Of a stretch of DNA of 35,353 bases, positions 16,565 to 30,440 are shown one piece after another. The translations under genes were made by a program, and so were the position numbers. Location: the UHGV virus genome UHGV-0105470; one strand, written 5' to 3'. How positions within the stretch are numbered: the first letter of the stretch is position 1; each line of letters begins with the position of its first letter. Under the pieces are notes generated by a model. It saw nothing but the letters and a program-made list of their open reading frames with translations. It did no database searches and had not been told where the DNA came from. The stretch comes from a virus.

Positions 16565-16640
16565 TGGTACAGGTGGAGGGAATTGAACCCATCGTCTTAC
16601 TGATTAAGAGTCAGCCGCATAACCATTTTGCTACACCTGC
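16565..16640 (-). tRNA. tRNA-Lys (CTT)
   Basis: Acceptor GCAGGTG/CACCTGT, anticodon stem GCTGA/TCAGT with loop CTCTTAA; T-stem only 3 clean bp. Confidence 0.7.
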
Positions 16641-16647
16641 ATTAATT

Positions 16648-16725
16648 TGGTAGGAGACAAGGGATTCGAACCCTCAAACACCAACTTCTAAGGATGGTAG
16701 GTTTACCAATTACCGTCAATCTCCC
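16648..16725 (-). tRNA. tRNA-Leu (TAG)-like, atypical class-I architecture
   Basis: 78 nt; acceptor GGGAGAT/GTCTCCT (two G-U); anticodon stem CCATC/GTTGG with loop CTTAGAA; 5-nt variable loop; A73. Confidence 0.5.
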
Positions 16726-16977
16726 ATTAAATCTTTTTAGAGAACTTCTAAGAACCTAAGCAACAAGGTTCCACAACAAGCTGTAATAACCTTAGAAGCC
16801 CTCTAAAAAGACCTAATTTGGTCTTTGCATAGTCTTGTTTAATCCGGTGACTAGAACCTTTGGAGAGCTTGATATATCTCTTCTCCGTGACACCTACTAG
16901 GTGCTTTATCAGTGTACGACAATACACGAGGGATAAACCGAAAATGCGAGCAAGCATGGACGGTGTAAATCTTATTA

Positions 16978-17067
16978 GGCGGTAAGTAAAGGAGTCGAAC
17001 CCTCACCGTATCTCTACAGTGGCAACAGTTTTCAAGACTGTTTGGCTGCCATTAGCCGCTACCTACC
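16978..17067 (-). tRNA. tRNA-Ser (TGA), class II
   Basis: 90 nt; acceptor GGTAGGT/ACTTACC; anticodon stem ACAGT/ACTGT with loop CTTGAAA; long variable arm; T-loop TTCGACT; 3' CCA not fully encoded. Confidence 0.8.
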
Positions 17068-17080
17068 CCTAATAAGATTT

Positions 17081-17163
17081 TGGCATGGGACGGAGGAGTT
17101 GAACCCCTTTGAAACGGTTTTGGAGGCCGTTGCTCATGCCTTAGAGTCTTAACATCGTCCCAT
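17081..17163 (-). tRNA. tRNA-Trp (CCA)-like, atypical 83 nt
   Basis: Acceptor ATGGGAC/GTCCCAT, Trp-type anticodon loop CTCCAAA, T-loop TTCAACT, G73 CCA; 5' half about 7 nt longer than canonical. Confidence 0.5.
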
Positions 17164-17305
17164 ACTGTAATTCGAAGCTTACCGTATTTTCACAACACTG
17201 TAAAGCCCCTTCTCAGATTATTTACATGTTCTGGAAAACATGAGATACAGACCACCTCCTTACACGGAGACCCGATAAGGTCGTCTAAGCAATCTGCTAA
17301 CTATT

Positions 17306-17382
17306 TGGCACACCCTACAGGATTCGAACCTGTAACTCAATGATTAGAAGTCATTTGCTCTGTCCAGTTGAACTAAGGGTGC
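17306..17382 (-). tRNA. tRNA-Arg (TCT)
   Basis: Acceptor GCACCCT/AGGGTGT, D-stem GTTC/GAGC, anticodon stem AATGA/TCATT with loop CTTCTAA. Confidence 0.85.
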
Positions 17383-17629
17383 ATTAATCTTTAAAAACTC
17401 TCTTAGAAAGCCCTTAAAGATGCCCACCTTATTAATCATACCGTGGGCTAGTACGCCAAATTCTTTGATGAGGGATTGGAAGACCTCACTGGTGTTTAGC
17501 CTATCAAGCTACTGCCAGAAAAACATTGTCGTTTGCATTTATTTTAAATTTGCAAAATAGACGCTACGCAACGAAAACTAAGGTTACTATAAAGTGGTCA
17601 CATCTAAATGTCAACAACTTTATTGAAAT

Positions 17630-17705
17630 TGGTACTGGTAGGTGGAATCGAACCACCGATGTTCCCTTATCAGGGGAGTGTTATAACCTTCTTAACTATA
17701 CCAGC
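17630..17705 (-). tRNA. tRNA-Ile (GAT)
   Basis: Acceptor GCTGGTA/TACCAGT, anticodon loop CTGATAA, T-arm GGTGG-TTCGATT-CCACC. Confidence 0.85.
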
Positions 17706-17706
17706 T

Positions 17707-17782
17707 TGGAGGTTCAGATGGGATTCGAACCCACATTCATAGGGCTTATGAGACCCTTGCATTACCTTATCTGCGACTGAAC
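17707..17782 (-). tRNA. tRNA-Met (CAT); elongator, initiator or Ile2 not distinguishable
   Basis: Acceptor GGTTCAG/CTGAACC, anticodon stem AGGGT/GCCCT with loop CTCATAA. Confidence 0.8.
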
Positions 17783-17787
17783 CATAT

Positions 17788-17863
17788 TGGTAGAAGTGGA
17801 GGGATTCGAACCCATCGCCTGTCAGATTAAAAGTCTGCCGCATCACCATTCTGCTACACTTCC
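17788..17863 (-). tRNA. tRNA-Lys (TTT)
   Basis: Acceptor GGAAGTG/CACTTCT, anticodon loop CTTTTAA; paralogous in sequence to the Lys (CTT) gene. Confidence 0.8.
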
Positions 17864-17869
17864 ATTAAA

Positions 17870-18009
17870 TTATCTTTGTAGATAAGCTACCCAGACTTGC
17901 TTAAGGTCTGTAGCGATGTGCCTTGTTGGGTTTAAATCTAGAATTTACCCTTTCACCCTTTGTGGTCGCATACTCACAGGTAAGCTTAATAACTTATCTA
18001 CAAAGATAA
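17870..18009. repeat. 16-17 bp inverted repeat pair (ttatctttgtagataag / cttatctacaaagataa) flanking about 105 bp
   Basis: Exact reverse-complement 16-mers at about 17870-17886 and 17993-18009 inside the tRNA array spacer. Confidence 0.6.
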
Positions 18010-18060
18010 TTACCAGACCGTTGTTTATCATCTTAAGTGCTACCATTACACCAACTCGAC

Positions 18061-18140
18061 ATCTGCCGAGTGAAGGAATCGAACCTTCGCCTTTTCTTTA
18101 CCGGAGAAATAGATTGTTTAAGTTTTGCTGTAAACGGTCT
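18061..18140 (-). pseudogene. tRNA remnant (intact T-arm, no pairing acceptor stem)
   Basis: T-arm GAAGG-TTCGATT-CCTTC and stem-loop TTTCT-CCGGTAA-AGAAA, but no 5' strand complementary to ACTCGGC and C at loop position 33. Confidence 0.35.
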
Positions 18141-18154
18141 TCTGTAAATTTGTT

Positions 18155-18235
18155 GAGCCAGACCAAGTTTTAAATTTTCAAAATTAAATTGGCTTTAAAT
18201 TTTAAGTAACTTGCTGAATTTGGTCTTCTGCTCCT
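18155..18235 (-). ncRNA. conserved spacer stem element in tRNA array (one of four copies)
   Basis: CCAGACC(R) ... (Y)GGTCTTCTG ends with compensatory R/Y covariation across copies at 18011-18145, 18155-18235, 18558-18625, 18714-18796. Confidence 0.4.
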
Positions 18236-18291
18236 TTAAAGAATACTCGTAAGAACCCTTTAAGGGAGGGGCTAAATAGCCCTCTCAAAAT

Positions 18292-18368
18292 TGGCGGTTA
18301 CGATGAGACTTGAACTCACATCATCTCCCGTGACAGGGGAGTATTTTATCCAGTTAAACTACATAACC
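18292..18368 (-). tRNA. tRNA-Asp (GTC)
   Basis: Acceptor GGTTATG/CGTAACC, anticodon stem CTCCC/GGGAG with loop CTGTCAC, T-loop TTCAAGT. Confidence 0.85.
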
Positions 18369-18374
18369 TTTATT

Positions 18375-18462
18375 TGGTGTGCCGTGTAGGAGTCGAACCT
18401 ACCGAGTCTCAATGACAAGGGATTTACAGTCCCCACCGCTACCATCTACGGGATAACGACAC
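18375..18462 (-). tRNA. tRNA-Tyr (GTA), class II
   Basis: 88 nt; acceptor GTGTCGT/ACGGCAC; anticodon stem GGGGA/TCCCT with loop CTGTAAA; long variable arm; T-arm GTAGG-TTCGACT-CCTAC. Confidence 0.8.
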
Positions 18463-18471
18463 ATTTAAATT

Positions 18472-18548
18472 TGGCGGTTAGTCAGGGATTCGAACCCTGT
18501 GCCATTCGCTTAACAGGCGACCGCACATACCTTATGTGCTTCCTAACC
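18472..18548 (-). tRNA. tRNA-Asn (GTT)
   Basis: D-stem GCAC/GTGC, anticodon loop CTGTTAA, T-arm CAGGG-TTCGAAT-CCCTG. Confidence 0.8.
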
Positions 18549-18628
18549 TTAATATATTGCCAGACCGTGTTTTTTTTTCTTTTATCCGCAAAAAGTAGTT
18601 TATTGCTGCATACGGTCTTCTGCAAAAT

Positions 18629-18705
18629 TGGAGGCGGGTGCAGGAGTCGAACCTGCCGATGCCATGCTAATGAGACATGTGAGACGCCCTTTCTCTATAC
18701 CCGCA
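18629..18705 (-). tRNA. tRNA with CAT anticodon (Met or Ile2), second copy
   Basis: Anticodon stem CATGT/GCATG with loop CTCATTA (pyrimidine at 37), T-arm GCAGG-TTCGACT-CCTGC, 1-72 mismatch. Confidence 0.6.
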
Positions 18706-18796
18706 ATTCTTAATGACCAGACCAAATCTCTTCTTTGTCCGATTTAGCTTCAGATGAATAAGATTAAGTTTGCTGTAATTGGTCTTCTGTCAAAAC

Positions 18797-18874
18797 TGGC
18801 GTTCCAGAAGGGATTTTAACCCTCAAATATCCACTTTGAAAGAGTGGTGACTATACCATTTTGTCTACTGGAAC
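18797..18874 (-). tRNA. tRNA-Glu (TTC)
   Basis: Acceptor GTTCCAG/CTGGAAC, anticodon stem CCACT/AGTGG with loop CTTTCAA; unusual T-loop TTAAAAT (A at position 56). Confidence 0.75.
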
Positions 18875-18881
18875 ATTAATT

Positions 18882-18958
18882 TGGTCTCTGTTGGAGGACT
18901 TGAACCTCCGGCCTTACCGCCCCAAACGGAACACTCTACCAAGCTGAGCTAAACAGAG
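18882..18958 (-). tRNA. tRNA-Pro (TGG)
   Basis: C1-G72 acceptor CTCTGTT/AACAGAG, D-stem GCTC/GAGT, anticodon loop TTTGGGG, T-arm GGAGG-TTCAAGT-CCTCC. Confidence 0.85.
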
Positions 18959-19082
18959 ATAAACTTTTCAAACTCTATGTAACCACTTTAACATTATTTT
19001 TTAGTGATTGTCAAGAACTTTTTTAAAATATTTTTCAGTATCTTAGAAAAGCTCTCATTTCGTTTCTATGTAGAACATATTA

Positions 19083-19112
19083 AAGGGTATCAAACACATT
19101 GTCAATACCCTT
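19083..19112. terminator. perfect 8-bp hairpin (AAGGGTAT-N14-ATACCCTT), possible terminator
   Basis: Inverted repeat followed by a T-rich tract on the plus strand; sits between the vWA gene 3' end and the tRNA array. Confidence 0.4.
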
Positions 19113-19123
19113 TTTAAAACTTT

Positions 19124-20538
19124 TTACCAGATATAACGGTCAACCATTACTGCTTTGAGCATTACGCTGATTGGGTCAAACTTCTCACCACCAAGCAGAG
19201 CTTTTAAAGTGGCTGGAGAGAACCCTGATACCATCGCTACACCATTATCCTTAACAGATACTTCGCAAGTACCATTACGGTTTGCTAAGTACCAGAATAC
19301 TAGTTGTGGCATTTCGTATCCAGCTTTTTTGTACTTACTCTGAATTGCTTCAAAGTTTGTACGACCATTTGCACCATCAACCTGATTAAACTCCATATCA
19401 GAGAAGATAATAAGCTTACTTGGCATATCTTTCTGAGTCAAGTTGTTTCTCTTACCTATCTCAAGAATACGGTCAAAGCTGCTTGTAAGTTAGTTGAACC
19501 ATATTCAACATGACGCATTACCTGACGATGACGGTTTCGTAAATCACCACTCAGTTCAATGAAATGAGGGTTTGTTGAATAGACCATTAACTCATCTTTA
19601 AAGCAACCTGTATTGCGTTCTGCTACATACAAGGCAAGTGATACACCAATATCAAGGGCAGTGATTGAACCAAGATTCACCCAAGACATTGAGCTTGAAA
19701 CATCAGTCATACACAAGATGTTCTCACCTTCTGCCATCCAGTTTGGTAGTGCTTTCCACTGCTCATTAGCAACATCTGCATTACCATGCTTGATAGACTT
19801 AATCACATCGTATGGGTAGACAGCACCAGCATTAATCTTAGCCTCACCTTTTGATAAGGACTCAATGTAAGCTTTGTAGCGTTCTCCATCTTTGCGGTTA
19901 AAGAGCTTTTGGTAACGTGCAGCAGCAAGAGACGGAATCTTACTGTAATCAATCTTACCAAACTCATTAGCAGAGATTTTTTGCTCAACCGTATCAGACA
20001 GTGCAGATAACAGTGTGCGGTATTCTTTCTCGCTTAAGTTTGCAAACTTACAGAAACGTTTTACAAACTGTTTGTGTCGTGGTTTTACTCGTGGTAACCA
20101 CTTGGCTGCTAAACCTGCTGTCTCAGGGTCTAGTAATGCTGCTTCTAAATGCTTAAAGGCATCTGTCTCAAAACGAGTACCTACGAAGATTTTGAAGTCA
20201 TCAAAACGACCAAGTTCTGCAATCTTATCCATAATACGAAGAAACTGTGTAGGCTCTAAAACTTTATCTTCGATTGCTTGAAGTAAAACAGTTCTGAAGG
20301 CTTTACGCTCACCCATACCTTCTCGTACATCTCGCATGTGAAGCAAAATACGAACTGCAACATCAACATCCTCACGCAAAGCTTTGTAGAACAAGTCTGG
20401 TAAGATTTCTACATTGCTACGGCTTGAACCAGCAGCTTTGTAAAAGTCCACAAGAGCAGACATTGATGAAGTATGGTTTACAGCACCATTTTCAGTTCGA
20501 CCTGCATGAAGGTGCGCATGTTTAAATAATTCGCTCAT
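19124..20538 (-). pseudogene. vWA-domain protein gene (Ro60/TROVE-like?) interrupted by a frameshift
   Basis: ORF 19456..20538 carries MIDAS motif DVSSS and ends ...GSTNLQAALTVFLR*; ORF 19124..19441 in a different frame carries the downstream vWA motif LIIFSDMEF; the two frames overlap at 19456-19492. Confidence 0.6.
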
Positions 20539-20619
20539 ATTTTACTCTCTTCTCTCATTTGTTGTTTGATGTGACAGACTTTAGAGCAACTTTGTAGAGT
20601 CTGTCAACACCTTTTAAAA

Positions 20620-20991
20620 TTATTTTTTGAGAGTCGCTACAGCAGAGAACGTTGGTTTGTTATCTGTCTGTGGTTGACCACCATTATCAGGAGTCTTCTT
20701 AGTGTCTGCTGCAAGTGCTTTCATCTCACCTGCTGAGTGAGTAAAGATAGTTTTACCGACCTCAATCATACTCTTGATGGTTACATCGTCTGTGTTTAAC
20801 CCGAACTCTGCAAGCTTAGCAGCATCCCTTGTAACAATCGCCTCAAACAGCTTTGCAGCAAACTCAGCAGAATTATCAATGGTCAGTTGAGCTTTTACGA
20901 GTGAGCTTTTGTTACGAGAGCCTTTTGGTCTTCCAGATGGGTTTCCAGATTGGCCTTTTTTAAACTGGCCTTTGTTTGTTCTGTTTTTCAT
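20620..20991 (-). CDS. hypothetical basic protein with N-terminal GNPxGRPKG motif
   Basis: 123-aa ORF; N-terminus NKGQFKKGQSGNPSGRPKGSRNK is a motif recurrent in small phage DNA-binding/packaging-associated proteins (recalled, not searched). Confidence 0.55.
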   Translation of the reverse strand: MKNRTNKGQFKKGQSGNPSGRPKGSRNKSSLVKAQLTIDNSAEFAAKLFEAIVTRDAAKLAEFGLNTDDVTIKSMIEVGKTIFTHSAGEMKALAADTKKTPDNGGQPQTDNKPTFSAVATLKK

Positions 20992-21240
20992 TGGTATGCC
21001 TCTTATAAGACCTCTTAAAAGGCTTTTAAGATAAAAGATAGATATCCAGAAAGATATCTGTTTAAATAGCCTTTTTAGAGGAACCTTTTAAGTTATCTTC
21101 TAAGTATTTATAAGCCTACACCTTGTCAAGTACTTTGTCAACAACTTTTTTAACTTGCAATAGTTCTTGACTTGTTGTATGGATTACTGTACCATCTTAC
21201 TTAAAGCTGTAGGTCTGCCTTGTTCTACAAAGGAGACTTA
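20992..21240. promoter_or_regulatory. divergent intergenic control region
   Basis: Between divergently oriented genes; contains TTGTCA/TTGACT hexamers, palindrome AGATATC-cagaaa-GATATCT and several CTTNNAAG motifs. Confidence 0.4.
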
Positions 21241-21402
21241 ATGAGAAAATCAAACAACCCGAAGAAAGGTAAAAATACCAATCACTGTAAGGAATCAAAA
21301 AGGGTAGAGTTACTCTACTATTCATCCTCTGAAATTGGTCTGTACCTGTTCTTTCAAAATTACAGAAGACAAGAGGATTATCTATGTGTAGTTCCCAATT
21401 AG
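21241..21402 (+). CDS. hypothetical small basic protein
   Basis: ATG at 21241 preceded by AAGGAGA; shorter than the ORF-track 21220 start. Confidence 0.4.
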   Translation: MRKSNNPKKGKNTNHCKESKRVELLYYSSSEIGLYLFFQNYRRQEDYLCVVPN

Positions 21403-21629
21403 AAATCGCAGATATTATAGATTTATATAAGACTGCAAAGAGTCATGGCTATATAACCTCAATTGGAAAGAATAGTCACTACGATGCTTTGACTGGAATG
21501 TATTTCAGGGCAATGGCTCAATCTAGTGAACAACACTTAATGGTTTCTTCCAGTGAGTTTACTTCGTTTCTCTATTGCAGCAAAATCATAAATCGCAGGA
21601 GAACTGAAAATGTTAACAGTAAGTTTTAA
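21384..21629 (+). CDS. hypothetical protein
   Basis: 81-aa ORF overlapping both neighbours by about 20 nt. Confidence 0.35.
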   Translation: MCSSQLEIADIIDLYKTAKSHGYITSIGKNSHYDALTGMYFRAMAQSSEQHLMVSSSEFTSFLYCSKIINRRRTENVNSKF

Positions 21630-22200
21630 TTATAATAGTGATGGCTCTGTATCAATTAATTCACCATATGCAAATGACCTATTGAAAGCGCTAGTTAATC
21701 AGTGTGATAGAGGTCTTCACTATGTCCCAAATTCTTTCAAGCAGAAGACTATTGCCAATAACCTGATGCGTGTGACGGTTACGACATCAAACCCAAACTA
21801 TGACATTGATAGTGAAAGTCCTTACTCTTTAGTGGCTCTTGGAGAATGCAGTCAATTTAAACTTGTATGCCACGACTCAGAAACATTTCTTAAGGTATTT
21901 TCCAACCTTATTCACAATAACAAGTATGGATATGTTGATGGTAGTGTTAACTTCTATCCAGCAAACTATACCTGTCTATTGATTGATAATATGAGAAACA
22001 GCAAGCAAGAGCCTACAGAAATTTCATTTGATGTGAACTCTAGTCCAGACGCAGAAACAAGTAATAACTTCGATATGAGTTACGCGCTATCACTCAGCAA
22101 GAAATCCGAGTTCATTGATTATGTCAATGGATTTGGTTTTAAGTTTGACGAGAGCATGAATCTCAAAAAACTTAAGAACCTACTTAAGACCAAAGCTTAA
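21610..22200 (+). CDS. hypothetical protein
   Basis: 196-aa ORF preceded by GGAG-like SD (aggagaactgaaaATG). Confidence 0.6.
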   Translation: MLTVSFNYNSDGSVSINSPYANDLLKALVNQCDRGLHYVPNSFKQKTIANNLMRVTVTTSNPNYDIDSESPYSLVALGECSQFKLVCHDSETFLKVFSNLIHNNKYGYVDGSVNFYPANYTCLLIDNMRNSKQEPTEISFDVNSSPDAETSNNFDMSYALSLSKKSEFIDYVNGFGFKFDESMNLKKLKNLLKTKA

Positions 22201-22247
22201 GTATAAACAGGGGCTGATGCCCCTTTATCTGTTTATAAGGATATTTA

Positions 22248-22619
22248 ATGAAGGCTAAGAGTGCAAAAGACTTTTATTGCTTCCTACAATCCTATATCCA
22301 CTCCGTGGAGAATGGTGAAAGATACAATCTTAACGATGTTATTGCATCACCTTTAACATGGAGAATGAGTAAATGGCCTGAAGAGGATATTACACCAACT
22401 GCCGAACAACCCACCTATAACCCAGAAATTAAACTCCCAGATTCAGATAAGTTACTATACCCAATGTTCCACATTGTCGGGCTTGGTACGTTTATCATGG
22501 ATATCCAGTATGTAATTGGTAAGGGTTATAAAGTTGAAGGTATTGTTGTTAGTGATGTGTCTCCACAACATAAAGGCTATTTTAGATTAAACGCACGTTT
22601 AGAGGCTAAAAAGAAATGA
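22248..22619 (+). CDS. hypothetical protein, paralog of the N-terminal domain of the next gene
   Basis: 123 aa; shares YxxF..F..G...V..GxRY.....Y.EAI.PLTY...WPEADI pattern with residues 1-120 of 22616..23746; stop overlaps next start (ATGA). Confidence 0.6.
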   Translation: MKAKSAKDFYCFLQSYIHSVENGERYNLNDVIASPLTWRMSKWPEEDITPTAEQPTYNPEIKLPDSDKLLYPMFHIVGLGTFIMDIQYVIGKGYKVEGIVVSDVSPQHKGYFRLNARLEAKKK

Positions 22620-23746
22620 TTAAAGCAAAGACTTACCCAGACTTCAAAGAATTTGTAAGGGGTTTCATTGCAAATGTAAAGGCTGGTAAGAGATATGATT
22701 TTAGAACATATCAAGAAGCTATTTTACCACTTACCTATAGTTCATATTGGCCTGAAGCTGATATCGCAGAAGTTGAGAAGTTTGACTACAAACCAGACTA
22801 CAAAGTACCTTTTAGTGATGATTTGCTTTACAGCATCGGTGCTCAAAGGAGAACTTCTGACTTCTTCATGGATTTACAATATGCAATTATCAATGGTAAA
22901 GACGTTGATACAGTGTATTGTGAATGGTTGGCAAGAGTTAAGCCGTTCTCAATGTTGAATGCTAAGTTGAAGGATGCCATTAAGCCACCAGTAATTACTC
23001 AGCAACCGACAAACCAAACAGTCAATGAAGGTGGAGCACTTACCCTAAGTGTTCTCGCAACTAATGCCACTGGGTATCAATGGAAGAAGGATGGCGAGAA
23101 TATCTCCAGTGCCACATCTGCAACCTATACAAAACAATCTGTAGTACCTTCTGACGCTGGTTCATACACTTGTGTTGTGACTGGTGCTGGTGGTTCTGTT
23201 ACTTCTAACCCTGCAACTATCACGGTAAAGGCTTTGCCAGTTATCACTCAGCAACCAGCAAATCAAGAAATCACTGAAGGTGAGACCTTAACGCTGAATG
23301 TTGTGGCAACTGGTGCAACAGGTTACCAGTGGAAGAAAGGTGAGGAAGTCATCCCAGACGCAACTGCTGCAACTTACACCAAAGAAGGTGCAACTGCTGC
23401 TGATGCAGGAAGCTACACTTGTGTTGTGACTGGTGCTGGTGGTTCTGTTACTTCTAACCCTGCAACTATCACGGTAAAGGCTTTGCCAGTTATCACTCAG
23501 CAACCAGCAAATCAAGAAATCACTGAAGGTGAGACCTTAACGCTGAATGTTGTGGCAACTGGTGCAACAGGTTACCAGTGGAAGAAAGGTGAGGAAGTCA
23601 TCCCAGACGCAACTGCTGCAACTTACACCAAAGAAGGTGCAACTGCTGCTGATGCAGGAAGCTACACTTGTGTTGTGACTGGTGCTGGTGGTTCTGTTAC
23701 TTCTAATGCGGCAACAGTTACAGTTAACCCAGCAGGGGAGGCATAA
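22616..23746 (+). CDS. protein with N-terminal domain plus three tandem Ig-like domains
   Basis: 376 aa; three 83-aa repeats with the Ig-type pattern GYQWKK(D/G)(G/E)E...AGSYTCVVTGAGGSVTSN; stop overlaps lysozyme start. Confidence 0.7.
   Translation: MIKAKTYPDFKEFVRGFIANVKAGKRYDFRTYQEAILPLTYSSYWPEADIAEVEKFDYKPDYKVPFSDDLLYSIGAQRRTSDFFMDLQYAIINGKDVDTVYCEWLARVKPFSMLNAKLKDAIKPPVITQQPTNQTVNEGGALTLSVLATNATGYQWKKDGENISSATSATYTKQSVVPSDAGSYTCVVTGAGGSVTSNPATITVKALPVITQQPANQEITEGETLTLNVVATGATGYQWKKGEEVIPDATAATYTKEGATAADAGSYTCVVTGAGGSVTSNPATITVKALPVITQQPANQEITEGETLTLNVVATGATGYQWKKGEEVIPDATAATYTKEGATAADAGSYTCVVTGAGGSVTSNAATVTVNPAGEA
23166..23706 (+). repeat. perfect tandem duplication, 249-bp unit (about 2.2 copies), encoding Ig-like domains 2 and 3
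   Basis: Sequence at x and x+249 matched in every block compared by eye from about 23166 to 23457; a diverged copy precedes at about 22990. Confidence 0.85.
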
Positions 23747-24210
23747 TGCAACTCTCAAGAAAAGGTTTAGAAGCCATTAAGTTCTTTGAAGGTCTGAAGT
23801 TAGAGGCTTACAAAGACTCTGCCGGAATCCCAACAATTGGGTATGGTACAATCCGTATTGACGGAAAACCTGTTAAGATGGGTATGAAAATCACGGCTGA
23901 ACAAGCTGAACAGTATCTTCTTGCAGATGTTGAAAAGTTTGTTGCAGCAGTGAACAAAGCTATCAATGTTCCTACTTCTCAGAATGAGTTCGATGCTCTT
24001 GTAAGTGAAACATACAACATCGGTATTACAGCTATGCAGGATTCTACATTTATCAAGCGCCACAATGCTGGTAATAAGGTAGGTTGTGCAGAAGCTATGC
24101 AGTGGTGGAACAAGGTTACAGTCAAAGGTCAGAAGGTCACTTCAAACGGTCTGAAAAATAGACGAAGAATGGAAGCTGACATTTATCTTGACAGTGTATA
24201 TCCAAAGTAA
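23746..24210 (+). CDS. endolysin, GH24 lysozyme (T4 e / lambda R-like)
   Basis: N-terminal FFEGLKLEAYKDSAGIPTIGYG matches the T4 lysozyme catalytic region (Glu, Asp, Thr); 154 aa single domain. Confidence 0.9.
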   Translation: MQLSRKGLEAIKFFEGLKLEAYKDSAGIPTIGYGTIRIDGKPVKMGMKITAEQAEQYLLADVEKFVAAVNKAINVPTSQNEFDALVSETYNIGITAMQDSTFIKRHNAGNKVGCAEAMQWWNKVTVKGQKVTSNGLKNRRRMEADIYLDSVYPK

Positions 24211-24219
24211 TATCTTCAT

Positions 24220-24243
24220 AGGCTCCTTCGGGAGCCTTTTTTA
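24220..24243 (+). terminator. rho-independent terminator after lysozyme gene
   Basis: AGGCTCC-ttcg-GGAGCCT hairpin followed by T6. Confidence 0.75.
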
Positions 24244-24261
24244 TTTTCTAAGGAGAAAACT

Positions 24262-24660
24262 ATGAAACTTTGGGCTAGTGACTTTGGGACTTTTAAGTAC
24301 ACTCGTAACGGTTCACTTGTACGCATCATTGGAAACAATGTAGTTTCAAGAGGCGACAAGGTGTATACACGGTTTACTGTAGAGCTTGTTGAACTGTCAC
24401 CTATTGAGTCTGTGAACAATGGCATGTTCAAGTTTGAGACTTACAATGTCAATGAGCATGGACAATTCAATCCTCTTGGTGAAAGTGGACTTGATATTAT
24501 TTCAGAGCACCCATTGACAAAAGAGCAACTTGCAGGTTACTATAAAACTGTTCTGGAAAGGCAGTTAGCAACACATGAACAAGAAGCTAACTACCATTTA
24601 CAGCATTGCGAAACTTTAAGAGCAAAAATCGAACAAGCAGAGAGAGGTTTTTATGAATAA
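24262..24660 (+). CDS. hypothetical protein
   Basis: 132-aa ORF with SD AAGGAGAAAA before ATG. Confidence 0.6.
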   Translation: MKLWASDFGTFKYTRNGSLVRIIGNNVVSRGDKVYTRFTVELVELSPIESVNNGMFKFETYNVNEHGQFNPLGESGLDIISEHPLTKEQLAGYYKTVLERQLATHEQEANYHLQHCETLRAKIEQAERGFYE

Positions 24661-25048
24661 TAACAGTCATATCCACGTTAAAGTTGATGTCAGTCGTTAC
24701 AGCGAAAATGAGGAACTAGACCTGCAAGATGCTCTTCTCTTTGAGAAGAATGGTAATCTCCATTTGCATTTTGAAGGTACAAACACATATCTCCACAGAT
24801 GCCGAGATGATGCAGATGGTTGCCCTGTTTTTGCTTGGTATAATTTAGAGTTTCCACTTTACGCAATCCATTATCCAGATGGTGGAGAAGACTGGACAAC
24901 TCAATCAATCTTTGATGAGCTTAACGGTATTCCGGTTGAGCAGGAAGAACAAGAGCCTGTTGAGCTTACCTTCACCTTCGTCAAAGAAGAAACGGTTGGT
25001 GATTTGTCAGTAACTGAAGCTATTCAGGTAACACAGGTCATTCGCTAA
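24653..25048 (+). CDS. hypothetical protein
   Basis: 131-aa ORF overlapping upstream stop. Confidence 0.55.
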   Translation: MNNNSHIHVKVDVSRYSENEELDLQDALLFEKNGNLHLHFEGTNTYLHRCRDDADGCPVFAWYNLEFPLYAIHYPDGGEDWTTQSIFDELNGIPVEQEEQEPVELTFTFVKEETVGDLSVTEAIQVTQVIR

Positions 25049-25341
25049 TGAGTAAAGTACAGGTTATTTTCCCTATTTGTGACTTCTCACTAGAACGTGA
25101 ACTTGACCTGTACGAAGAAATTACTGACGAAATCATCTGGTCTGTTGTAGAAGAGGCTATCAAGAAGTTGTATGGTGGCCTCTTAAACCCATCAAGTAAA
25201 AAGCTTAATACCAAACAAGTAGCTGATACGTACACGTCATATGATGCCTACAACAAACCTTTTGAGAACACCTGCTTTGACCTTATGGTAGGTAATAATA
25301 AAGTCAACTATTTCTTCGTCAGAGAGTTTAACGATGAGTAA
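25048..25341 (+). CDS. hypothetical protein
   Basis: 97-aa ORF, start overlaps upstream stop. Confidence 0.55.
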   Translation: MSKVQVIFPICDFSLERELDLYEEITDEIIWSVVEEAIKKLYGGLLNPSSKKLNTKQVADTYTSYDAYNKPFENTCFDLMVGNNKVNYFFVREFNDE

Positions 25342-25678
25342 GCTCCATGTCACAGTGTACAAAAACTTCTCAGATATCAAAGAGTCTTTAACAAATAAGC
25401 TTGACTTACAACGTAAAAGACTCTTTTTAATGTACGACATAGACAACTACAACCATCCTAAAGAGTTTAACTACAAAGATGGTACAAAGGTCGTTGAATT
25501 TGAAGATTCTGTAACGGTGTATGTCAAGCATGACTTACCAGCAAAGTACATAGGGATGTTAGAGTATTACATATTCAAACATACTGGTATGCGTGGTGAA
25601 TCTGTTAAGATATCTTCTATAGAAGTTTTTGAGAAACCTAACACACAACTTAAAAAGTATTTAATGAGGAAACTGTAA
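25334..25678 (+). CDS. hypothetical protein
   Basis: 114-aa ORF. Confidence 0.55.
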   Translation: MSKLHVTVYKNFSDIKESLTNKLDLQRKRLFLMYDIDNYNHPKEFNYKDGTKVVEFEDSVTVYVKHDLPAKYIGMLEYYIFKHTGMRGESVKISSIEVFEKPNTQLKKYLMRKL

Positions 25679-26259
25679 TGTCCGAAGAGCAACAGAATAT
25701 TACTCCACAAGTAACACTGGTACAACATTTTGGAAATATTGAAGGTTGTGTTGCACTTTTTCAACCAAGCATCAACTCTCCTGCAAAAGTCTGTAAGTTG
25801 ACTATGAATGTCAACAACATTAGTGTTTGTCTTGTTGAGGAAGTTCAGTACTTCAAGTTTAATGACAGAGAAGTTGATGCTGCACTTTTGAAGTATCGAG
25901 CAAATCTCGAAAAAGACATTGACCATAAAGAACTTGTAACACTGTTCGGTGACCTTCACAAGCTTCTTGAAAAGGTTATGAAGCGCACATACTACATGAA
26001 CAATGGTTCAATTATCACCACTCTGATTTCACCATGTATCTCAGAGCCAATCCTGACTGATGAAGGTGGGTACTATGTTGTAGCATCAGCAGATTCTGAC
26101 TGGTGGATGAAAAATACAGCACTGAAGACAGTAATTGAAGCCATTCGTGAGCATATCCCTTCATTCAGCCCGTGGAAAGGCAAAGGTGATGACTTCATCG
26201 CACTGTTGAGTGAAGAGAGTAACAAGAGAAGCGCATTACTGCCTAAAAAATACTCTTGA
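25678..26259 (+). CDS. hypothetical protein
   Basis: 193-aa ORF, start overlaps upstream stop (TAATG). Confidence 0.55.
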   Translation: MSEEQQNITPQVTLVQHFGNIEGCVALFQPSINSPAKVCKLTMNVNNISVCLVEEVQYFKFNDREVDAALLKYRANLEKDIDHKELVTLFGDLHKLLEKVMKRTYYMNNGSIITTLISPCISEPILTDEGGYYVVASADSDWWMKNTALKTVIEAIREHIPSFSPWKGKGDDFIALLSEESNKRSALLPKKYS

Positions 26260-26343
26260 CCGAATATACAATGTTAACTATGATGGGAGCTATCGAGAGG
26301 TAGTTCCCTTTTTTAGTTTCTTAAGAAGATGCGTGGTGAAAGA

Positions 26344-26562
26344 ATGAAAAAACTAACTACAGTTGAAGATTACTACAAGCTGTCCCTATTAGAACAATAT
26401 CGTAGAAGTCAGAATATCAGAAAATGCTATGGTAAACACGCTGAAGGTGACTTTTACCGTTGCTACGATGCAGATTTAAAAGGTGTAACACCTAGAGGGA
26501 AAGTCCTGCAAAGACTTGTTGACCTTGAGTGGAACAAACGATTGAGAGAGGTTGGAAAATGA
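26344..26562 (+). CDS. hypothetical small basic protein
   Basis: ATG at 26344 (MKKLTTV...) preceded by GGTGAAAGA; chosen over ORF-track start 26329. Confidence 0.5.
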   Translation: MKKLTTVEDYYKLSLLEQYRRSQNIRKCYGKHAEGDFYRCYDADLKGVTPRGKVLQRLVDLEWNKRLREVGK

Positions 26563-27062
26563 TTTACGAAGAAAGATATAAGATAGATTATCAGGATACT
26601 CGCCATCATACTTCTTTGAGAGTAACCAAACCAAATGGGGATACTGGTATCATAGCACATTTTGGTGGTGATTATTGGTACGGTACAGGTTGCTTTGAAG
26701 GCTACACTCAAGAATACCTGAAAGCTTTCTACAGAGACTTTACAAATGACTACAACAGGGTTGTTGACGAAAAGAATAAGTGCATTAAGCATGAACACCA
26801 TGCCAGAGGTTGTTTAAGTACGGTAATGGTACTGGCATTTTTCCTAGCAACATTACTGGCAGTATCAGCAATCAGTTCCATAGCTCAAGACTTAACCATT
26901 ACACAGATTACTGCAAAGGTATATGATGTTTGGTACTTGTATGCTGTCCCTTTAATTGGTATCATCATCTCACTACTAAGATTCAGAGTTCATAAGAAAC
27001 GACTTAAGGACTCGGAGATTAAACTTGAAGAGGTAAGTAAAGAATGCAACCTACAATTATAG
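26559..27062 (+). CDS. hypothetical membrane protein (two predicted TM helices)
   Basis: ATG at 26559 preceded by GAGAGAGG; hydrophobic segments VMVLAFFLATLLAVSAISSIA and VWYLYAVPLIGIIISLL. Confidence 0.55.
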   Translation: MIYEERYKIDYQDTRHHTSLRVTKPNGDTGIIAHFGGDYWYGTGCFEGYTQEYLKAFYRDFTNDYNRVVDEKNKCIKHEHHARGCLSTVMVLAFFLATLLAVSAISSIAQDLTITQITAKVYDVWYLYAVPLIGIIISLLRFRVHKKRLKDSEIKLEEVSKECNLQL

Positions 27063-27142
27063 CTGTATGTGTTCGTTTTGCAATCGCTGAAATGATTAAC
27101 AAGGCAATCTTGAAAGATGCCTATGGAGAGACTAAGCAATGA
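27044..27142 (+). CDS. possible small ORF (32 aa)
   Basis: ATG at 27044, stop overlaps next ATG (ATGA); below ORF-track size cut-off. Confidence 0.3.
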   Translation: MQPTIIAVCVRFAIAEMINKAILKDAYGETKQ

Positions 27143-27363
27143 TTAAGACACCTGTACCAATTTTTGGATTTCCTTCTATTGAAGAATTTAAAGTTTATCT
27201 TGACAAAAACTTCTACAATGAGCAGCCTGTTACTTTGCTGAAGAGTGACTTATCAGAGCTTCTTGATATGGTTATCAAGGCAACTTCTGAGAAGGAACCT
27301 GAGCAGAAAGCTGAGAAGAAGACTAGTAAGAAATCCGATAAGAAGACTGAAAAGTCTGAGTAG
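27139..27363 (+). CDS. hypothetical protein with Lys/Glu-rich tail
   Basis: 74-aa ORF. Confidence 0.5.
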   Translation: MIKTPVPIFGFPSIEEFKVYLDKNFYNEQPVTLLKSDLSELLDMVIKATSEKEPEQKAEKKTSKKSDKKTEKSE

Positions 27364-27369
27364 TAGCTT

Positions 27370-27394
27370 AAGGGGTTACTTGATAGCCCCTTTG
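27370..27394 (+). terminator. possible terminator hairpin
   Basis: AAGGGG-N11-CCCCTT stem-loop after stop of 27139..27363; weak T tract. Confidence 0.4.
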
Positions 27395-27416
27395 TAGAAA
27401 CTTAGAGGGTAGCGAA

Positions 27417-27839
27417 ATGAAAGAGCTTATTGGTAAAAGATTGACAGTTTACTGCTCTAAAACAAAGAAACCACTCACTTCTGTGAAGGTCTTTGATGTT
27501 GACGACACTGGTGTAGAGTATCCAATCCAATGCACAATACTTAACCCATTTAGTGCAGATGATATGGATTTTAAAGAGTGTGAAGTGATATCTTTTAATG
27601 CTGATGGGTATTGGAGAGGTAAGTTAAACAAGCAATCAGAAGATTTTGATATGCGAATACTTATCAATGAAGGCTATATCGGTGTAAAAGATATCCTTGT
27701 AGAAGCCTATGAAGAAGGTATAATAGATGTTGTGCATGATGTTGAAGAAGCTTTAAAGCTCATTATGCCACATTTAGAATCTGGGAAGCTGACTTTAGAG
27801 ATGCTTAATAGGGTTATTCGGAGAGCTTATGAAAATTAA
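27417..27839 (+). CDS. hypothetical protein
   Basis: 140-aa ORF with SD (gagggtagcgaaATG). Confidence 0.6.
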   Translation: MKELIGKRLTVYCSKTKKPLTSVKVFDVDDTGVEYPIQCTILNPFSADDMDFKECEVISFNADGYWRGKLNKQSEDFDMRILINEGYIGVKDILVEAYEEGIIDVVHDVEEALKLIMPHLESGKLTLEMLNRVIRRAYEN

Positions 27840-28293
27840 AGAAGTCGTTCAAAAAGCCATGCTTAACAATTCAACTAAACATGAAATGTACATAGAGATT
27901 TGTGATAAGCTGAATTGTTCAAGACATGCTGCTAAGGTTCTTGTAAGTTGCTTTATCTGGGAATGCTCAGAGGCTTATATGCAACATGTAGCTTTTGATA
28001 GTTCTCACTTACTAGGTGATGTAGAAGCTGGTGAGAAACTGAAAGAACCTGAGATGAAAACAGTTCCTAAAGTTGGTAATGTATACCCTCTTAAAGACTT
28101 CAAGACTGGAAAGATTGTTGCAAAAGGTGTAGTAGAATCTGTTTATCACGATGGTAAATACTTACTTAAAATATTTGAGTATGATAGCAGATATACACAC
28201 TTGTGTGGTCTTACATTCTTAGTAACAGAAGAAGACCTCATTAAGAACAACGATAACAAGTTTGCTGTTCCAGATTACCAAGTTTTACGATAA
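27829..28293 (+). CDS. hypothetical protein
   Basis: 154-aa ORF overlapping upstream gene end. Confidence 0.55.
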   Translation: MKIKEVVQKAMLNNSTKHEMYIEICDKLNCSRHAAKVLVSCFIWECSEAYMQHVAFDSSHLLGDVEAGEKLKEPEMKTVPKVGNVYPLKDFKTGKIVAKGVVESVYHDGKYLLKIFEYDSRYTHLCGLTFLVTEEDLIKNNDNKFAVPDYQVLR

Positions 28294-28306
28294 TGGTGTG
28301 ATAGAT

Positions 28307-28855
28307 ATGAAAAAAGATAACTTAAAAGAAGTTGAAGGCAACTACCTAGTCCTTGACTGGAATGATATTCGGGAAGCACTCTCCGAAGAAAGCCTTGACA
28401 TACTAGAGCAACTTATCTTCTCAGTACGTCATACCAGAGGTATTGTAAACGGTAAAGAGCCATTAGAAGGAATCTTTGTAGAGAAGTCTTATCCGTTCTA
28501 TGAAGACACTTTGCAGAAAGTTAAAATGTACTTTAGACAGAAGAACCGTAAAGTGGTCACTATGGTGTCTCTTGGTGGTCAGAGCATGTCTGTGATGGAA
28601 GATATCAACCCTAAGAGACCGAGTAAAGGTGTTTGTATAAAAATCACAGGGCATGAAGAGTACATCTCAGTGGATGACTTTAGTGCATTCTGTAATGGTT
28701 CTGCTGTATTTAATGGGTTCCACTATGATATCCGAGTGTACCCAATCAAGGGAGATGATATCATGATGCAGATATTCGATAACAACAATGGATTCACTCA
28801 TTTTTATCAGACAACCAAGTCATCACTGAAGACAGTTCTGGAAACACTGATTTAA
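28307..28855 (+). CDS. hypothetical protein
   Basis: ATG at 28307 (MKKDNLKEV...) preferred over ORF-track start 28262, which overlaps the upstream gene. Confidence 0.55.
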   Translation: MKKDNLKEVEGNYLVLDWNDIREALSEESLDILEQLIFSVRHTRGIVNGKEPLEGIFVEKSYPFYEDTLQKVKMYFRQKNRKVVTMVSLGGQSMSVMEDINPKRPSKGVCIKITGHEEYISVDDFSAFCNGSAVFNGFHYDIRVYPIKGDDIMMQIFDNNNGFTHFYQTTKSSLKTVLETLI

Positions 28856-28865
28856 AATATCTTAA

Positions 28866-28890
28866 GAGCCTCCTTAATTGGGGGCTTTTT
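28866..28890 (+). terminator. rho-independent terminator ending the plus-strand block
   Basis: AGCCTCC-ttaatt-GGGGGCT hairpin followed by T5. Confidence 0.6.
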
Positions 28891-28949
28891 AATTTTTATA
28901 AAATTTTATCGGTTGTTCCAACCTCTGGGTCACCATCATATGTGAATAA

Positions 28950-29760
28950 AATATCTACCCTTCTTAACATCCTTCTTAAGCTTACTCTCTATATATAGTT
29001 ATATAGTACTATATAGTATCTTAGTATCTATCTAGTGGTCTTAATAGCCCCTCTGTATAGCCCTTCTAAACACTCTTCTAACAAGCCTTCTTAACAGCCT
29101 ATACAATCACCTTAACCATCTCTCTATACCCTCTTAGAAGCCCCTATACACCTCTTAATCTTTAGGTTATCTGTGTTACTTAACAGTAACCCATTATGTC
29201 AACTATGTTACCCTCTATAGGTGTTCACTAGGTATTACTAAGCCTCTATATAGACTGTTTTAACAAACTTAACAGGAATATCTTTACAGACCTTATCTCA
29301 CAAGGTCTAACACGGTAATAACAAGGTATCTTATAAGCCTGTTTATGCCTGTATTTTTAAAAGACTGTCTAGGTAATTATTCAGAATTTTAAAATTTTTA
29401 TAAAAATAGGACTATCAAGTCATTTTTTAGGGTCTTTGAAGGAACTCAAAAATATCTGTAGAAGATGTATATCTGCTTGGTAGCCCTTAACACCCCTGTA
29501 ACATCCCCTTTGCAGAATTTTAAAATATCCTTAACAATCTCTTAACAGCTACTACATCTTCTTAACATCTCTTCAGAGGTCTTAACAGATTCTTAACAGG
29601 ACTAACAAGGGCTTAACAAGTTCTTAACAGTCGATACATGGTCTTTATAGTCTCTTAACAGATGACTAACAAGAGCTAACAAGTTAATTTTTAAGAGTTA
29701 TTTTGTTAAGATAATTAACAAGTTCCTAACAAGTGTCTAATCTTTTAACAAGCTATTAAC
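28950..29760. repeat. iteron-like array of short direct repeats (CTTAACAG / CTAACAAG / TTAACAAG family)
   Basis: More than 20 copies of an 8-9 bp motif, many at about 10-11 bp spacing (densest 29530-29760); an AT-rich TATATAGT triple repeat at about 28984-29010; no ORF of 60 aa or more across 28856-30477. Confidence 0.7.
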
Positions 29761-29779
29761 ACGGTCACTATCTCTTTCT

Positions 29780-30440
29780 TATCGTTCCCTTTCCCTCTTA
29801 GTGACTCTTTAAACATACCTCTTAAAAGTTCTCTATAGCTCCTTGTAAGCTCTTTTAAGCCTCTTCCTAGTATCTACCACTCAACTGTATGGATAGCTCT
29901 TTATAGGGCTTTACAGGAGCTTTTAAGGCTATGTCAAAGGCTCTTACAAGGTTTTTACGTGGTATTAACAGAGATTTAACAAGGGGCTAACAAGTGCCTT
30001 AAAAGTGTAACTATGTAGGGATTGTTAAGAAATTGTTAAGGGGGCTAGTATTTACGTAACTTTTAAACCACTTTGAAGCAACTTTATAGCCCCTATAACA
30101 TACTTTTAAGACACTAACAAGCCATTTATAGATATTCACAAGGAACTAACGAGATGATAAAGCTTACACCCTTATAAGATTCTTTTAAGCCTCTATAAAG
30201 CCCTGTAAAGAGCTTTTTAAGGTGAGTTAATGCAATCCCTTAAGTTAGGTTGATAAGGCTGTTATAGAGCTTTATAGAGCGTTTAAATGGGCCATCCCCT
30301 TTTCTGGGGTTATTGGCTTATATTTAAGTTGATTTGATAAAAGGTTATAGAGTAAGCTATAGAGTTATTGCTTTTTAAGGTCTTGTAAGATTCTGGAAAG
30401 GAAAGGGAAAGGGTTGTATAGGATTCAATAAGACGTAAAA
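29780..30440. repeat. large imperfect palindrome rich in CTTNNAAG and CTCTATAG-type motifs
   Basis: ccctttccct...ctctatagc near 29786-29840 mirrors gctatagag...gggaaaggg near 30385-30415; many motifs occur in both orientations. Confidence 0.6.

Follow-up and report, generated by a model that had tools for sequence, protein, structure and literature searches.

A probable Hoc-like capsid decoration gene with a recent perfect duplication of its terminal Ig unit in a Felixounavirus genome

The Ig-repeat gene and its capsid homologs

The plus-strand gene at 22616-23746 of UHGV-0105470, a stretch of 35,353 nucleotides referred to here as the window, very probably encodes the Felixounavirus hexamer-centre decoration protein Hex-Dec, a Hoc-like protein orthologous to Bas63 Hex-Dec, Sf14 gp20 and Felix O1 gp36. 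Sequence comparison also suggests that it adjoins the endolysin gene by conserved gene order, and that its 249-nt repeat arose by recent out-of-register recombination. The phage is a Felixounavirus, and the DNA of the window is 90-93% identical to many genomes of that genus. The 376-aa product was originally predicted to be an Ig-repeat protein with a non-Ig N-terminal domain, and so it is: the profile search for Ig domains that had been proposed returned the Pfam families Ig_2 (E 6e-33), Ig_3 (E 9e-32) and I-set (E 8e-25) for the three 83-aa Ig domains, and residues 1-123 align without gaps to PDB chains 9ncf_S and 9c2d_S. Those same chains are matched by the whole protein in phmmer searches (9ncf_S, Bas63 capsid, E 1.6e-244; 9c2d_S, Sf14 capsid, E 9e-166), which bears out the suggestion of a decoration protein, one of several roles the original prediction had offered.

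The capsid-binding domain (CapBD) is encoded by 22616-22984 of the plus strand and is about 98% identical to residues 1-123 of Bas63 Hex-Dec, the portion that was modelled in the capsid cryo-EM map (PMC12609058). Bas63 Hex-Dec and Sf14 gp20 are both monomeric decoration proteins located by cryo-EM at the centres of capsid hexamers (PMC12609058, PMC11821841), and in Bas63 the CapBD is N-terminal (PMC12609058). Arg79 and Arg107 of Sf14 gp20 form salt-bridge contacts with Asp221 of the capsid protein (PMC11821841); both arginines are present in the window CapBD and are invariant across 25 distinct CapBD sequences. Mass spectrometry found Sf14 gp20 in virions (PMC11821841) and identified Felix O1 gp36, of 31.6 kDa, as a virion protein with 44% peptide coverage (PMC3185647). 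We infer the capsid location of the window protein from the cryo-EM maps of Bas63 and Sf14 and from the mass spectrometry of Felix O1 and Sf14 virions. As in the homologs, its N-terminal 123 residues would plug, as a monomer, the centres of the pentamer-proximal hexamers of a T=9 capsid, Arg79 and Arg107 would engage Asp221 of the major capsid protein, and the C-terminal Ig string would form a flexible fibre reaching outward. If T4 Hoc is a guide, this fibre probably serves weak adhesion or aggregation, and not infection itself.

The capsid-binding-domain family is narrow, since just 12 cluster representatives with this domain came out of a profile search covering 1.84 billion representative proteins; the same search gave no functional clue for the stand-alone paralog described below. 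The wV8 genome and proteome paper contains no information on the Hex-Dec gene. Between one and four Ig domains have already been reported for the genus (PMC12609058), and the related genes compared here contain 1, 2, 3 or 4, the window gene having 3. Little about the gene is new, its one unusual feature being the perfect recent duplication of the last Ig domain.

The perfect tandem repeat and its origin

Tandem Repeats Finder reports the repeat at 23165-23706 of the plus strand with a period of 249, 2.2 copies, 100% matches, no indels and a score of 1084. It has the form H-X-H-X-H, where H is a 44-nt tract present three times (23165-23208, 23414-23457 and 23663-23706) and X is 205 nt. Positions 23165-23457 and 23414-23706 are identical over 293 nt, and the identity extends 0 nt beyond either side. 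When the gene is divided into in-register Ig units (22988-23236, 23237-23485 and 23486-23734), the second and third are respectively 76% and 70% identical to the first; by their coordinates, they share their first 221 nt with each other and differ in the final 28 nt (NPATITVKA versus NAATVTVNP in the protein). This is far beyond chance, the Ig repeats of 27 related genes with at least two Ig domains having just 62-70% DNA identity, and it upholds both the nucleotide identity of nearly 540 bp that had been noticed between the second and third repeats and the very recent duplication that had been read from it. The minus-strand open reading frames at 23288-23515 and 23537-23758, which had been put down to the repeat, do exist; they share most of their sequence because both are inside it, and they bear no sign of being genes. 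A comparison of 30 related loci and of 120 protein clusters found a perfect adjacent repeat in the window phage and one independent contig only, and a second ENA contig is 100% identical to the window across the repeat. No relevant account of tandem duplication in Hoc-like Ig arrays emerged from a search of the literature.

How might such a repeat have arisen? The first Ig domain (22988-23236, plus strand), of 83 aa rather than 84, is a chimera. Its N-terminal part (22988-23164) is of Ig1 type, and its C-terminal part with the linker (23165-23250) is of the type seen in the second Ig domain of relatives with three, matching residues 267-295 of UAB_Phi87-type genes at 76/86 positions, compared with 70-80% identity to the Ig1 C-terminal part of any relative. 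The second domain (23237-23485, plus strand) is a terminal-type copy, with its best matches in the last Ig domains of relatives. The third (23486-23746, plus strand) is again of terminal type and includes the tail NPAGEA and the stop codon, the 40-nt tail matching 40/40 in several relatives. C600M2 and CL1 match a 461-nt query as two pieces spanning 713 nt, that is, with 252 nt extra; P0059 has a matching Ig2 C-terminal part, and a relative with a single Ig domain (L022) reads as an Ig1/terminal-Ig chimera. The mosaic pattern suggests homologous recombination between Ig repeats that were out of register. As judged from these sequences, the simplest path would have two steps: an ancestor with three Ig domains, of UAB_Phi87 or C600M2 type, would first have lost 252 nt through an Ig1/Ig2 crossover, leaving the chimeric first domain, and an unequal crossover in the 44-nt tract common to the chimera and the terminal domain would then have duplicated one 249-nt unit. 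Such a path would account for the length of 376 aa instead of the usual 377. Any model needs an extra short homogenisation step, because the 44-nt tract of the terminal domain has 4-9 mismatches to relatives. Metagenome contigs, viral contigs and GenBank yielded no intermediate of the window lineage with two Ig domains and the 44-nt tract in both. The exact 44-nt tract had no match in metagenome contigs, and its only matches among viral contigs were the two IMG/VR contigs of the window phage; in GenBank, the closest match to Ig1 plus X reached only 89% identity.

The independent contig (ENA ERZ28582332 scaffold_399; locus L035, protein P0052) likewise carries a Felixounavirus Hex-Dec gene whose terminal Ig unit has been perfectly duplicated in tandem, 263 nt being repeated exactly at offset 249. 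In contrast to the window, it encodes a 460-aa protein with the array Ig1-Ig2-IgL-IgL, its junction tract measures 14 nt instead of 44 nt, and its upstream paralog has decayed to a remnant. Both cases bear on a different history in which copy number stayed constant, a single out-of-register gene conversion in an ancestor with three Ig domains having written "Ig2 C-part + terminal Ig N-part" over "Ig1 C-part + Ig2 N-part". Such a conversion is possible, although we doubt it. Its product has three Ig domains, as do the closest relatives, and replacing 252 nt by 249 nt predicts a protein one residue shorter, which fits 376 against 377 aa in the window and equally the 460 rather than 461 aa of L035. 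However, the identical tract in both cases spans a complete period and, beyond it, a short shared tract (249+44 and 249+14), which is automatic in unequal crossover, whereas a conversion tract would require both ends to lie exactly one period apart, and the chimeric forms with a single Ig domain show that real deletions happen.

The copy number of the window repeat rests on short-read metagenome assemblies, as does the only other perfect-repeat case, and the relatives examined, which include several isolate genomes from GenBank, show no perfect repeat. The duplication could then be an assembly artefact, the true genome having two Ig domains (Ig1N-H-X-H-tail) or another copy number, and the IMG/VR assembly of the same phage did break in two at the repeat, one contig ending 83 nt into it and the other starting 97 nt before its end. 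We nevertheless consider an artefact distinctly unlikely. A break of this kind is the expected outcome of a real exact repeat of at least 293 nt. A genome with two Ig domains would have just 44 nt common to its domains, and the L035 junction has just 14 nt; at the usual final k-mer of at least 55, a loop in the assembly graph should need reads with the X-H-X junction. Two ENA contigs, of 35,353 and 34,826 nt, also agree at every base across the repeat.

Neither cryo-EM paper settles by what route Ig-domain number changes; they suggest capture of host adhesin genes, or loss (PMC12609058, PMC11821841). The window and the one independent contig catch such a change directly. New Ig domains appear to arise by tandem duplication of the terminal Ig unit within the gene, via short identical tracts (44 and 14 nt), and to be lost through crossovers that leave chimeric domains. 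The Ig array could be viewed as a simple recombinational accordion, and it offers a natural allele pair for testing whether fibre length has an effect.

The upstream paralog and the adjoining endolysin

A stand-alone paralog of the CapBD (22248-22619, plus strand, 123 aa, 13.9 kDa; Felix O1 ORF37 family; phrog_4463, function unknown) lies just upstream, as the original prediction had it. BLASTP aligns it to Hex-Dec residues 2-119 with 36% identity over 121 aa (E 3e-17), and it matches 9ncf_S (E 1e-13) and 9c2d_S (E 1.5e-11) in the PDB. The two CapBD chains are also the top two Foldseek hits of its AlphaFold2 model, which is of modest quality (pLDDT 62.8, pTM 0.59), and the homology rests on the sequence evidence rather than on the model. 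The paralog is retained by 30 of the 32 loci that allowed a check of its position, and two relatives have lost it; its 67 distinct sequences, from Felixounavirus and related Ounavirinae, are strongly constrained. It retains the core motifs of the CapBD fold, and both capsid-contacting arginines are gone, Arg79 being replaced by Gly and Arg107 by Gln or His. By its sequence it is an old, conserved and dispensable copy of the capsid-binding domain. Neither cryo-EM paper, searched for "paralog" and for the flanking gene numbers, mentions it (PMC12609058, PMC11821841). Because it is conserved, is late together with Hex-Dec in Felix O1, keeps the fold motifs, has replaced arginines and is absent from those papers, one may speculate that it is a second hexamer-centre ligand, either filling the 20 true-threefold hexamers, which Hex-Dec is unable to bind, or restricting Hex-Dec to the 60 pentamer-proximal hexamers as a competitor or placeholder during assembly, although we hold this to be improbable. 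The paralog is a cheap target for knockout or for focused cryo-EM of the threefold hexamers.

Downstream of Hex-Dec lies the GH24 endolysin gene (Phage_lysozyme; 23746-24210, plus strand, 154 aa), whose product matches PF00959 (E 1e-40; 139.4 bits against a curated cut-off of 22.3) and the endolysin family phrog_7 (E 1.5e-58). The paralog and Hex-Dec genes overlap in ATGA (22616-22619), and Hex-Dec and endolysin in TAATG (23744-23748), the stop/start overlap seen originally. The order paralog, Hex-Dec, endolysin is normal for the group, because it is found in 26 of the 28 related loci with all three positions readable, including Felix O1 (ORF37, 36, 35), the remaining two having lost the paralog; the supposition that the pairing with the lysin is unusual or functional finds no support. 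Intrinsic-terminator-like hairpins lie on the plus strand at 22209-22234, just 5' of the paralog (AGGGGC TGAT GCCCCT with a T-rich tail, a hairpin listed as a terminator in Felix O1, Table 2 of PMC3185647), and at 24220-24247, 3' of the endolysin (AGGCTCC TTCG GGAGCCT followed by TTTTTATTTT). We considered the three genes as a discrete operon and rejected this, because the interval from the upstream hairpin to the start of the paralog has no promoter-like site; transcription of the locus probably reads through from about 21.2 kb. The structural module is on the minus strand at 109-13620, and 26 tRNA genes at 14050-18958 separate it from the Hex-Dec locus. The Hex-Dec gene is outside that module and directly 5' of the endolysin, which agrees with the published position "outside the structural module".

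A role for the Ig protein as a lysis accessory, or a functional coupling of it to the endolysin, had been proposed. The TAATG overlap is kept in most Felixounavirus loci, and Hex-Dec and endolysin lie between the same two terminator-like hairpins. Yet the homologs are structural capsid proteins, and the N-terminal domain is about 98% identical to one modelled in capsid hexamer centres (PDB 9ncf, 9c2d; PMC12609058, PMC11821841). The endolysin gene has its own Shine-Dalgarno-like tract, GGGGAGG at 23735-23741, and in more distant relatives a few bases separate the two genes. In Felix O1, which has a lysin with no adjacent holin and no holin-lysin cassette, ORF35 (lysin) peaks at 25 min, before ORF36 and ORF37, which peak at 60 min (PMC3185647). 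No transmembrane segment was detected in Hex-Dec, the paralog or any open reading frame within about 2 kb of the lysin: the highest Kyte-Doolittle mean over 19 residues is 1.04 in Hex-Dec and 1.38 in the paralog, and none of the ten frames in 21384-26259 reaches 1.6. The endolysin is the only one of those ten to match a lysis PHROG family, and the proposed search for a holin or spanin nearby was accordingly negative by both hydrophobicity and PHROG. (The hydrophobic open reading frame nearest to the lysin, at 26529-27062, is without known function.) A role in lysis is very improbable, and the repeats match a family of Hoc-like phage decoration proteins that is already known and has no connection with lysis. 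That Hex-Dec adjoins the endolysin merely by conserved gene order is in part shown by the related loci, and in part we infer that it plays no role in lysis. Many genomes and most database records label the protein "tail protein" or "major tail protein", as does phrog_3995, but a tail location is hardly credible, since cryo-EM has located the homolog on the capsid in two studies (PMC12609058, PMC11821841), and its annotation as a tail protein is expressly described as an error in the Bas63 paper (PMC12609058). The gene should be annotated as a Hoc-like capsid decoration protein (Hex-Dec), and neither as "tail protein" nor as a lysis gene.

Comparison with known decoration proteins

Like T4 Hoc, Hex-Dec has a small capsid-binding domain and an Ig-like string, and it would act as a monomer at hexamer centres, a non-essential decoration of adhesion type. 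Unlike in Hex-Dec, the domain order of Hoc is reversed, the capsid being bound through the C-terminus, and the two capsid-binding domains have distinct topology and minimal sequence conservation (PMC12609058). Membership of the T4 Hoc family by its capsid-binding domain was considered and rejected: the listed matches to the PHROG "Hoc-like head decoration" families phrog_2973 and phrog_4069 fall within residues 128-374, the Ig region, and the N-terminal domain matches phrog_3995 and phrog_4463.

Closer relatives share the arrangement seen here. Felix O1 has ORF37 (the paralog), ORF36 and ORF35 (the lysin) in the same order, ORF36 and ORF37 are late genes and gp36 is a virion protein (PMC3185647), which has, unlike the window protein, two Ig domains in 294 aa. 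Shigella phage Sf14 gp20 (9c2d and 9c3a, chain S) is collinear with the window protein over 370 residues, has three Ig domains and keeps Arg79 and Arg107, but it comes from a Mooglevirus, is clearly more diverged than Bas63 Hex-Dec, and has old, diverged Ig domains with no perfect repeat. Hex-Dec of Bas63 (Escherichia phage JohannRWettstein; 9ncf_S) is of the same genus, sits at the same locus, has a CapBD about 98% identical, carries the same types of first and last Ig domains and is described as Hoc-like (PMC12609058). It has four diverged Ig domains (460 aa) compared with three (376 aa) in the window, where the first domain is chimeric (Ig1/Ig2) and the other two result from perfect, recent copying of the terminal type.

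The Hex-Dec gene and its neighbors

What is the Ig-repeat protein encoded next to the endolysin? The window derives from a Felix O1-like myovirus (Felixounavirus), and its DNA is 90-93% identical to that of many E. coli and Salmonella phages. Three tightly packed plus-strand ORFs encode a 123-aa stand-alone paralog (22248-22619), the 376-aa Hex-Dec (22616-23746) and a 154-aa GH24 endolysin (23746-24210; Pfam PF00959 Phage_lysozyme, E 1e-40), overlapping by ATGA between the first two and TAATG between the last two. Pfam assigns three Ig domains to Hex-Dec (Ig_2, E 6e-33; also Ig_3 and I-set) and has no match for the 123-aa paralog, and Tandem Repeats Finder reports a perfect tandem repeat at 23165-23706 (period 249, 2.2 copies, 100% matches). 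The original prediction of three ORFs, an Ig-repeat protein with a perfect duplication, and an Ig-gene stop overlapping the lysozyme start is thus borne out.

Hex-Dec matches chain 9ncf_S of the Bas63 icosahedral capsid (E 1.6e-244), its first 123 residues being nearly identical, and chain 9c2d_S of the Sf14 capsid (E 9e-166). It belongs to a known family with solved structures, and the earlier suggestion of a decoration protein was right. The gene of the Bas63 ortholog, from which the name Hex-Dec comes, lies over 10 kb away from the structural module, and in most genomes it is wrongly annotated 'tail protein' (PMC12609058). Sf14 gp20 is a virion protein by mass spectrometry, and its capsid contact pairs Arg79 and Arg107 with Asp221 in the capsid protein (PMC11821841). 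Both arginines are kept in the window Hex-Dec and are invariant across 25 distinct N-terminal capsid-binding domains (CapBDs). The Felix O1 equivalents of the lysin, Ig protein and paralog are ORF35, ORF36 and ORF37. Purified Felix O1 virions contain gp36 (44% coverage), and the peak comes at 60 min for ORF36 and ORF37, as for the morphogenesis genes, and at 25 min for ORF35 (PMC3185647).

The structural module lies on the opposite strand to Hex-Dec, is bounded by the tape measure gene (at 109) and the large terminase gene (ending at 13620), and includes the major capsid protein gene (6805-7908, minus strand). Between the module and the Hex-Dec region stand 26 tRNA genes (14050-18958, minus strand), compared with 22 reported for Felix O1 and 23 for wV8. 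A 125-aa ORF adjoining the major capsid gene (7942-8319, minus strand) matches phrog_4146 'tail protease'; because the β-tulip decoration protein Dec carries this erroneous label in most genomes (PMC12609058), the ORF is probably Dec.

An unusual gene arrangement and a link to lysis had also been proposed, and neither holds. Of the 28 related loci with all three positions readable, 26 have the order paralog, Hex-Dec, endolysin, and the other two (L022 and L035) have lost the paralog; this order is the group's normal arrangement and no oddity, and the homologs are capsid proteins of a Hoc-like decoration family with no lysis link. Holin or spanin candidates near the lysin were sought: by hydrophobicity, no transmembrane-grade segment is present in any of the ten ORFs from 21384 to 26259, and a PHROGs search of ORFs near the lysin found no lysis family apart from the endolysin itself. 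The Felix O1 lysin also has no adjoining holin (PMC3185647). The endolysin ATG is preceded, 4 nt away, by a GGGGAGG tract of its own, and in more distant relatives a few bases separate the Hex-Dec stop from the endolysin start. Among the ORFs checked in 21384-28855, a hydrophobic segment of transmembrane grade occurs solely in the plus-strand ORF 26529-27062, further downstream (Kyte-Doolittle mean 2.34 over 19 residues, at residue 94); this ORF matches phrog_4343, labeled function unknown.

Origin of the perfect Ig repeat

Positions 23165-23457 are an exact copy of 23414-23706, and the identity ends abruptly on either side. The array reads Ig1N-H-X-H-X-H-tail, with a 44-nt tract H coding for YTCVVTGAGGSVTS and a 205-nt tract X. 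In 27 related genes with at least two Ig domains, the Ig repeats share only 62-70% DNA identity; those domains are old and the window, at 100%, is the exception, which agrees with the recent duplication first proposed. The middle Ig domain of the window is a terminal-type domain and best matches the last Ig domains of relatives. Ig1 is a chimera: its N-part is up to 94% identical to the Ig1 of relatives, while segment 23165-23250 scores 76/86 against the C-part of the second Ig in 3-Ig relatives, e.g., UAB_Phi87. Against Ig1 C-parts, which have an extra codon, this segment reaches only 70-80% identity. In C600M2 and CL1, a 461-nt query was matched in two pieces across 713 nt (252 nt extra), and the 377-aa database protein P0059 carries a matching Ig2 C-part.

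Judged from these alignments, the simplest history would be a deletion followed by a duplication. An out-of-register crossover would have removed 'Ig1 C-part plus Ig2 N-part' from a 3-Ig gene, and unequal crossover inside tract H would then have duplicated one unit, leaving 376 aa, not 377. Whatever the model, the H tract of the terminal domain would also have been homogenized, because it has 4-9 mismatches in 44 nt to relatives while the adjoining 40-nt tail has at most 3 to Felixounavirus 2-Ig relatives.

A second case bears on the mechanism. Locus L035 (ENA ERZ28582332 scaffold_399; 460-aa protein P0052) has the array Ig1-Ig2-IgL-IgL, and at 2847-3358 a run of 263 nt recurs exactly at an offset of 249, its length being that of one period and a 14-nt junction tract together. 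This Felixounavirus Hex-Dec is a second, independent case in which the terminal Ig unit was perfectly duplicated in tandem. Perfect adjacent repeats (83/83 residues) set the window and L035 proteins apart from the rest of the 120 best protein clusters, which reach at most 65/83. A single out-of-register gene conversion may instead have produced the window repeat, but in both cases the identical tract is as long as one period and a short shared tract combined, as unequal crossover predicts. In the Hex-Dec of L022 (3001-3633), the one inspected among the 1-Ig forms L019, L022, L023 and L029, the Ig domain reads as a chimera of an Ig1 N-part and a terminal-Ig C-part joined near SATSATYTK/EGATAAD, and would be the footprint of a deletion through unequal crossover. 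The L022 chimera and L035 duplication together support a general recombination mechanism. The 4-Ig Hex-Dec P0058 (436 aa, on a 6,572-nt ENA contig) has lost ~25 residues in frame from within its third Ig, reading …GYQWKKG|TCVVTG…; the deletion would break that Ig fold and is either a further recombination product or an assembly error.

The exact 376-aa protein is present on two ENA contigs, the window (35,353 nt) and ERZ1304109 NODE_1106 (34,826 nt), which are identical across the 7,131 nt compared, repeat included. An IMG/VR assembly of the same phage consists of two contigs of 23,279 and 62,131 nt (UViG_3300029816_000015 and _000002, our L004/L033 and L032; 0 mismatches over ~22 kb) broken exactly at the Ig repeat: one corresponds to window 12130-23247 and stops 83 nt into the repeat, the other corresponds to 23610-34682 and begins 97 nt before its end. 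The ENA assembly behind the window bridged the repeat where the IMG/VR assembly broke. Such a break is the expected product of a real, exact 293-nt repeat, so the duplication junction is probably real, and an assembly artefact is very unlikely, since the shared tract of a 2-Ig genome, just 44 nt, would be expected to assemble without a break at usual k-mer sizes. Elsewhere, the IMG/VR contig, identical up to that point, departs completely from the window over the window's last 671 nt (34683-35353). Megablast against GenBank phages matches 34400-34682 at 100% and finds nothing for this last segment. The GC content is ~32% over 34600-35353, with one open frame of 93 aa beginning MQNNKNKETLEIYVLGDD; the segment may represent an insertion, a variable region or the end of a chimeric contig.

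The stand-alone paralog and the capsid-binding domain

The upstream ORF is a true paralog of the Hex-Dec N-terminal domain, as had been noticed, with 36% identity to residues 2-119 (E 3e-17). It lies directly upstream of Hex-Dec in 30 of 32 checkable loci, comprises 51 database clusters (65-98% identity) reaching Mooglevirus and CHB7-type phages, and forms a separate PHROG labeled function unknown. Paralog and CapBD have the core motifs PLT(Y/W), WPExDI, LLY, F.MD.QY and LNA.L in common; both contact arginines are replaced in the paralog, Arg79 by Gly in 65/67 sequences and Arg107 by Gln or His in 64/67. Its AlphaFold2 model is modest (pLDDT 62.8), and its PDB matches are the two CapBD chains only. 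In Felix O1 the paralog ORF37 is a late gene absent from the virion protein list (PMC3185647). The paralog is missing at L022 2809-3000 and L035 1809-2000, each a 192-nt gap compared with the 372-nt gene, and what is left in the L035 gap reads as a degenerate copy that has suffered an internal deletion and lacks a start codon, so these two relatives, at least, can do without the paralog.

The CapBD family is narrow, with 12 representatives among 1.84 billion proteins. Five distant homologs (P0176-P0180, 153-229 aa, E 1e-7 to 3e-4) carry, by eye, other C-terminal regions, which look like Big_2-type Ig in P0176 and P0177 and are Lys/Ser-rich in P0178. These sequences suggest that CapBD may be a portable capsid anchor.

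How does this compare with the published structures? Attention to the paralog is added here: we found no mention of it in the Bas63 or Sf14 cryo-EM papers, looking for 'paralog' in both and for the flanking gene numbers in the latter (PMC12609058, PMC11821841). Ig domain number is known to vary from one to four across the genus (PMC12609058), and that variation is not new here. The additions are the L035 duplication and, in the window, what appears to be a clear recombination footprint of how the Ig array contracts and expands.
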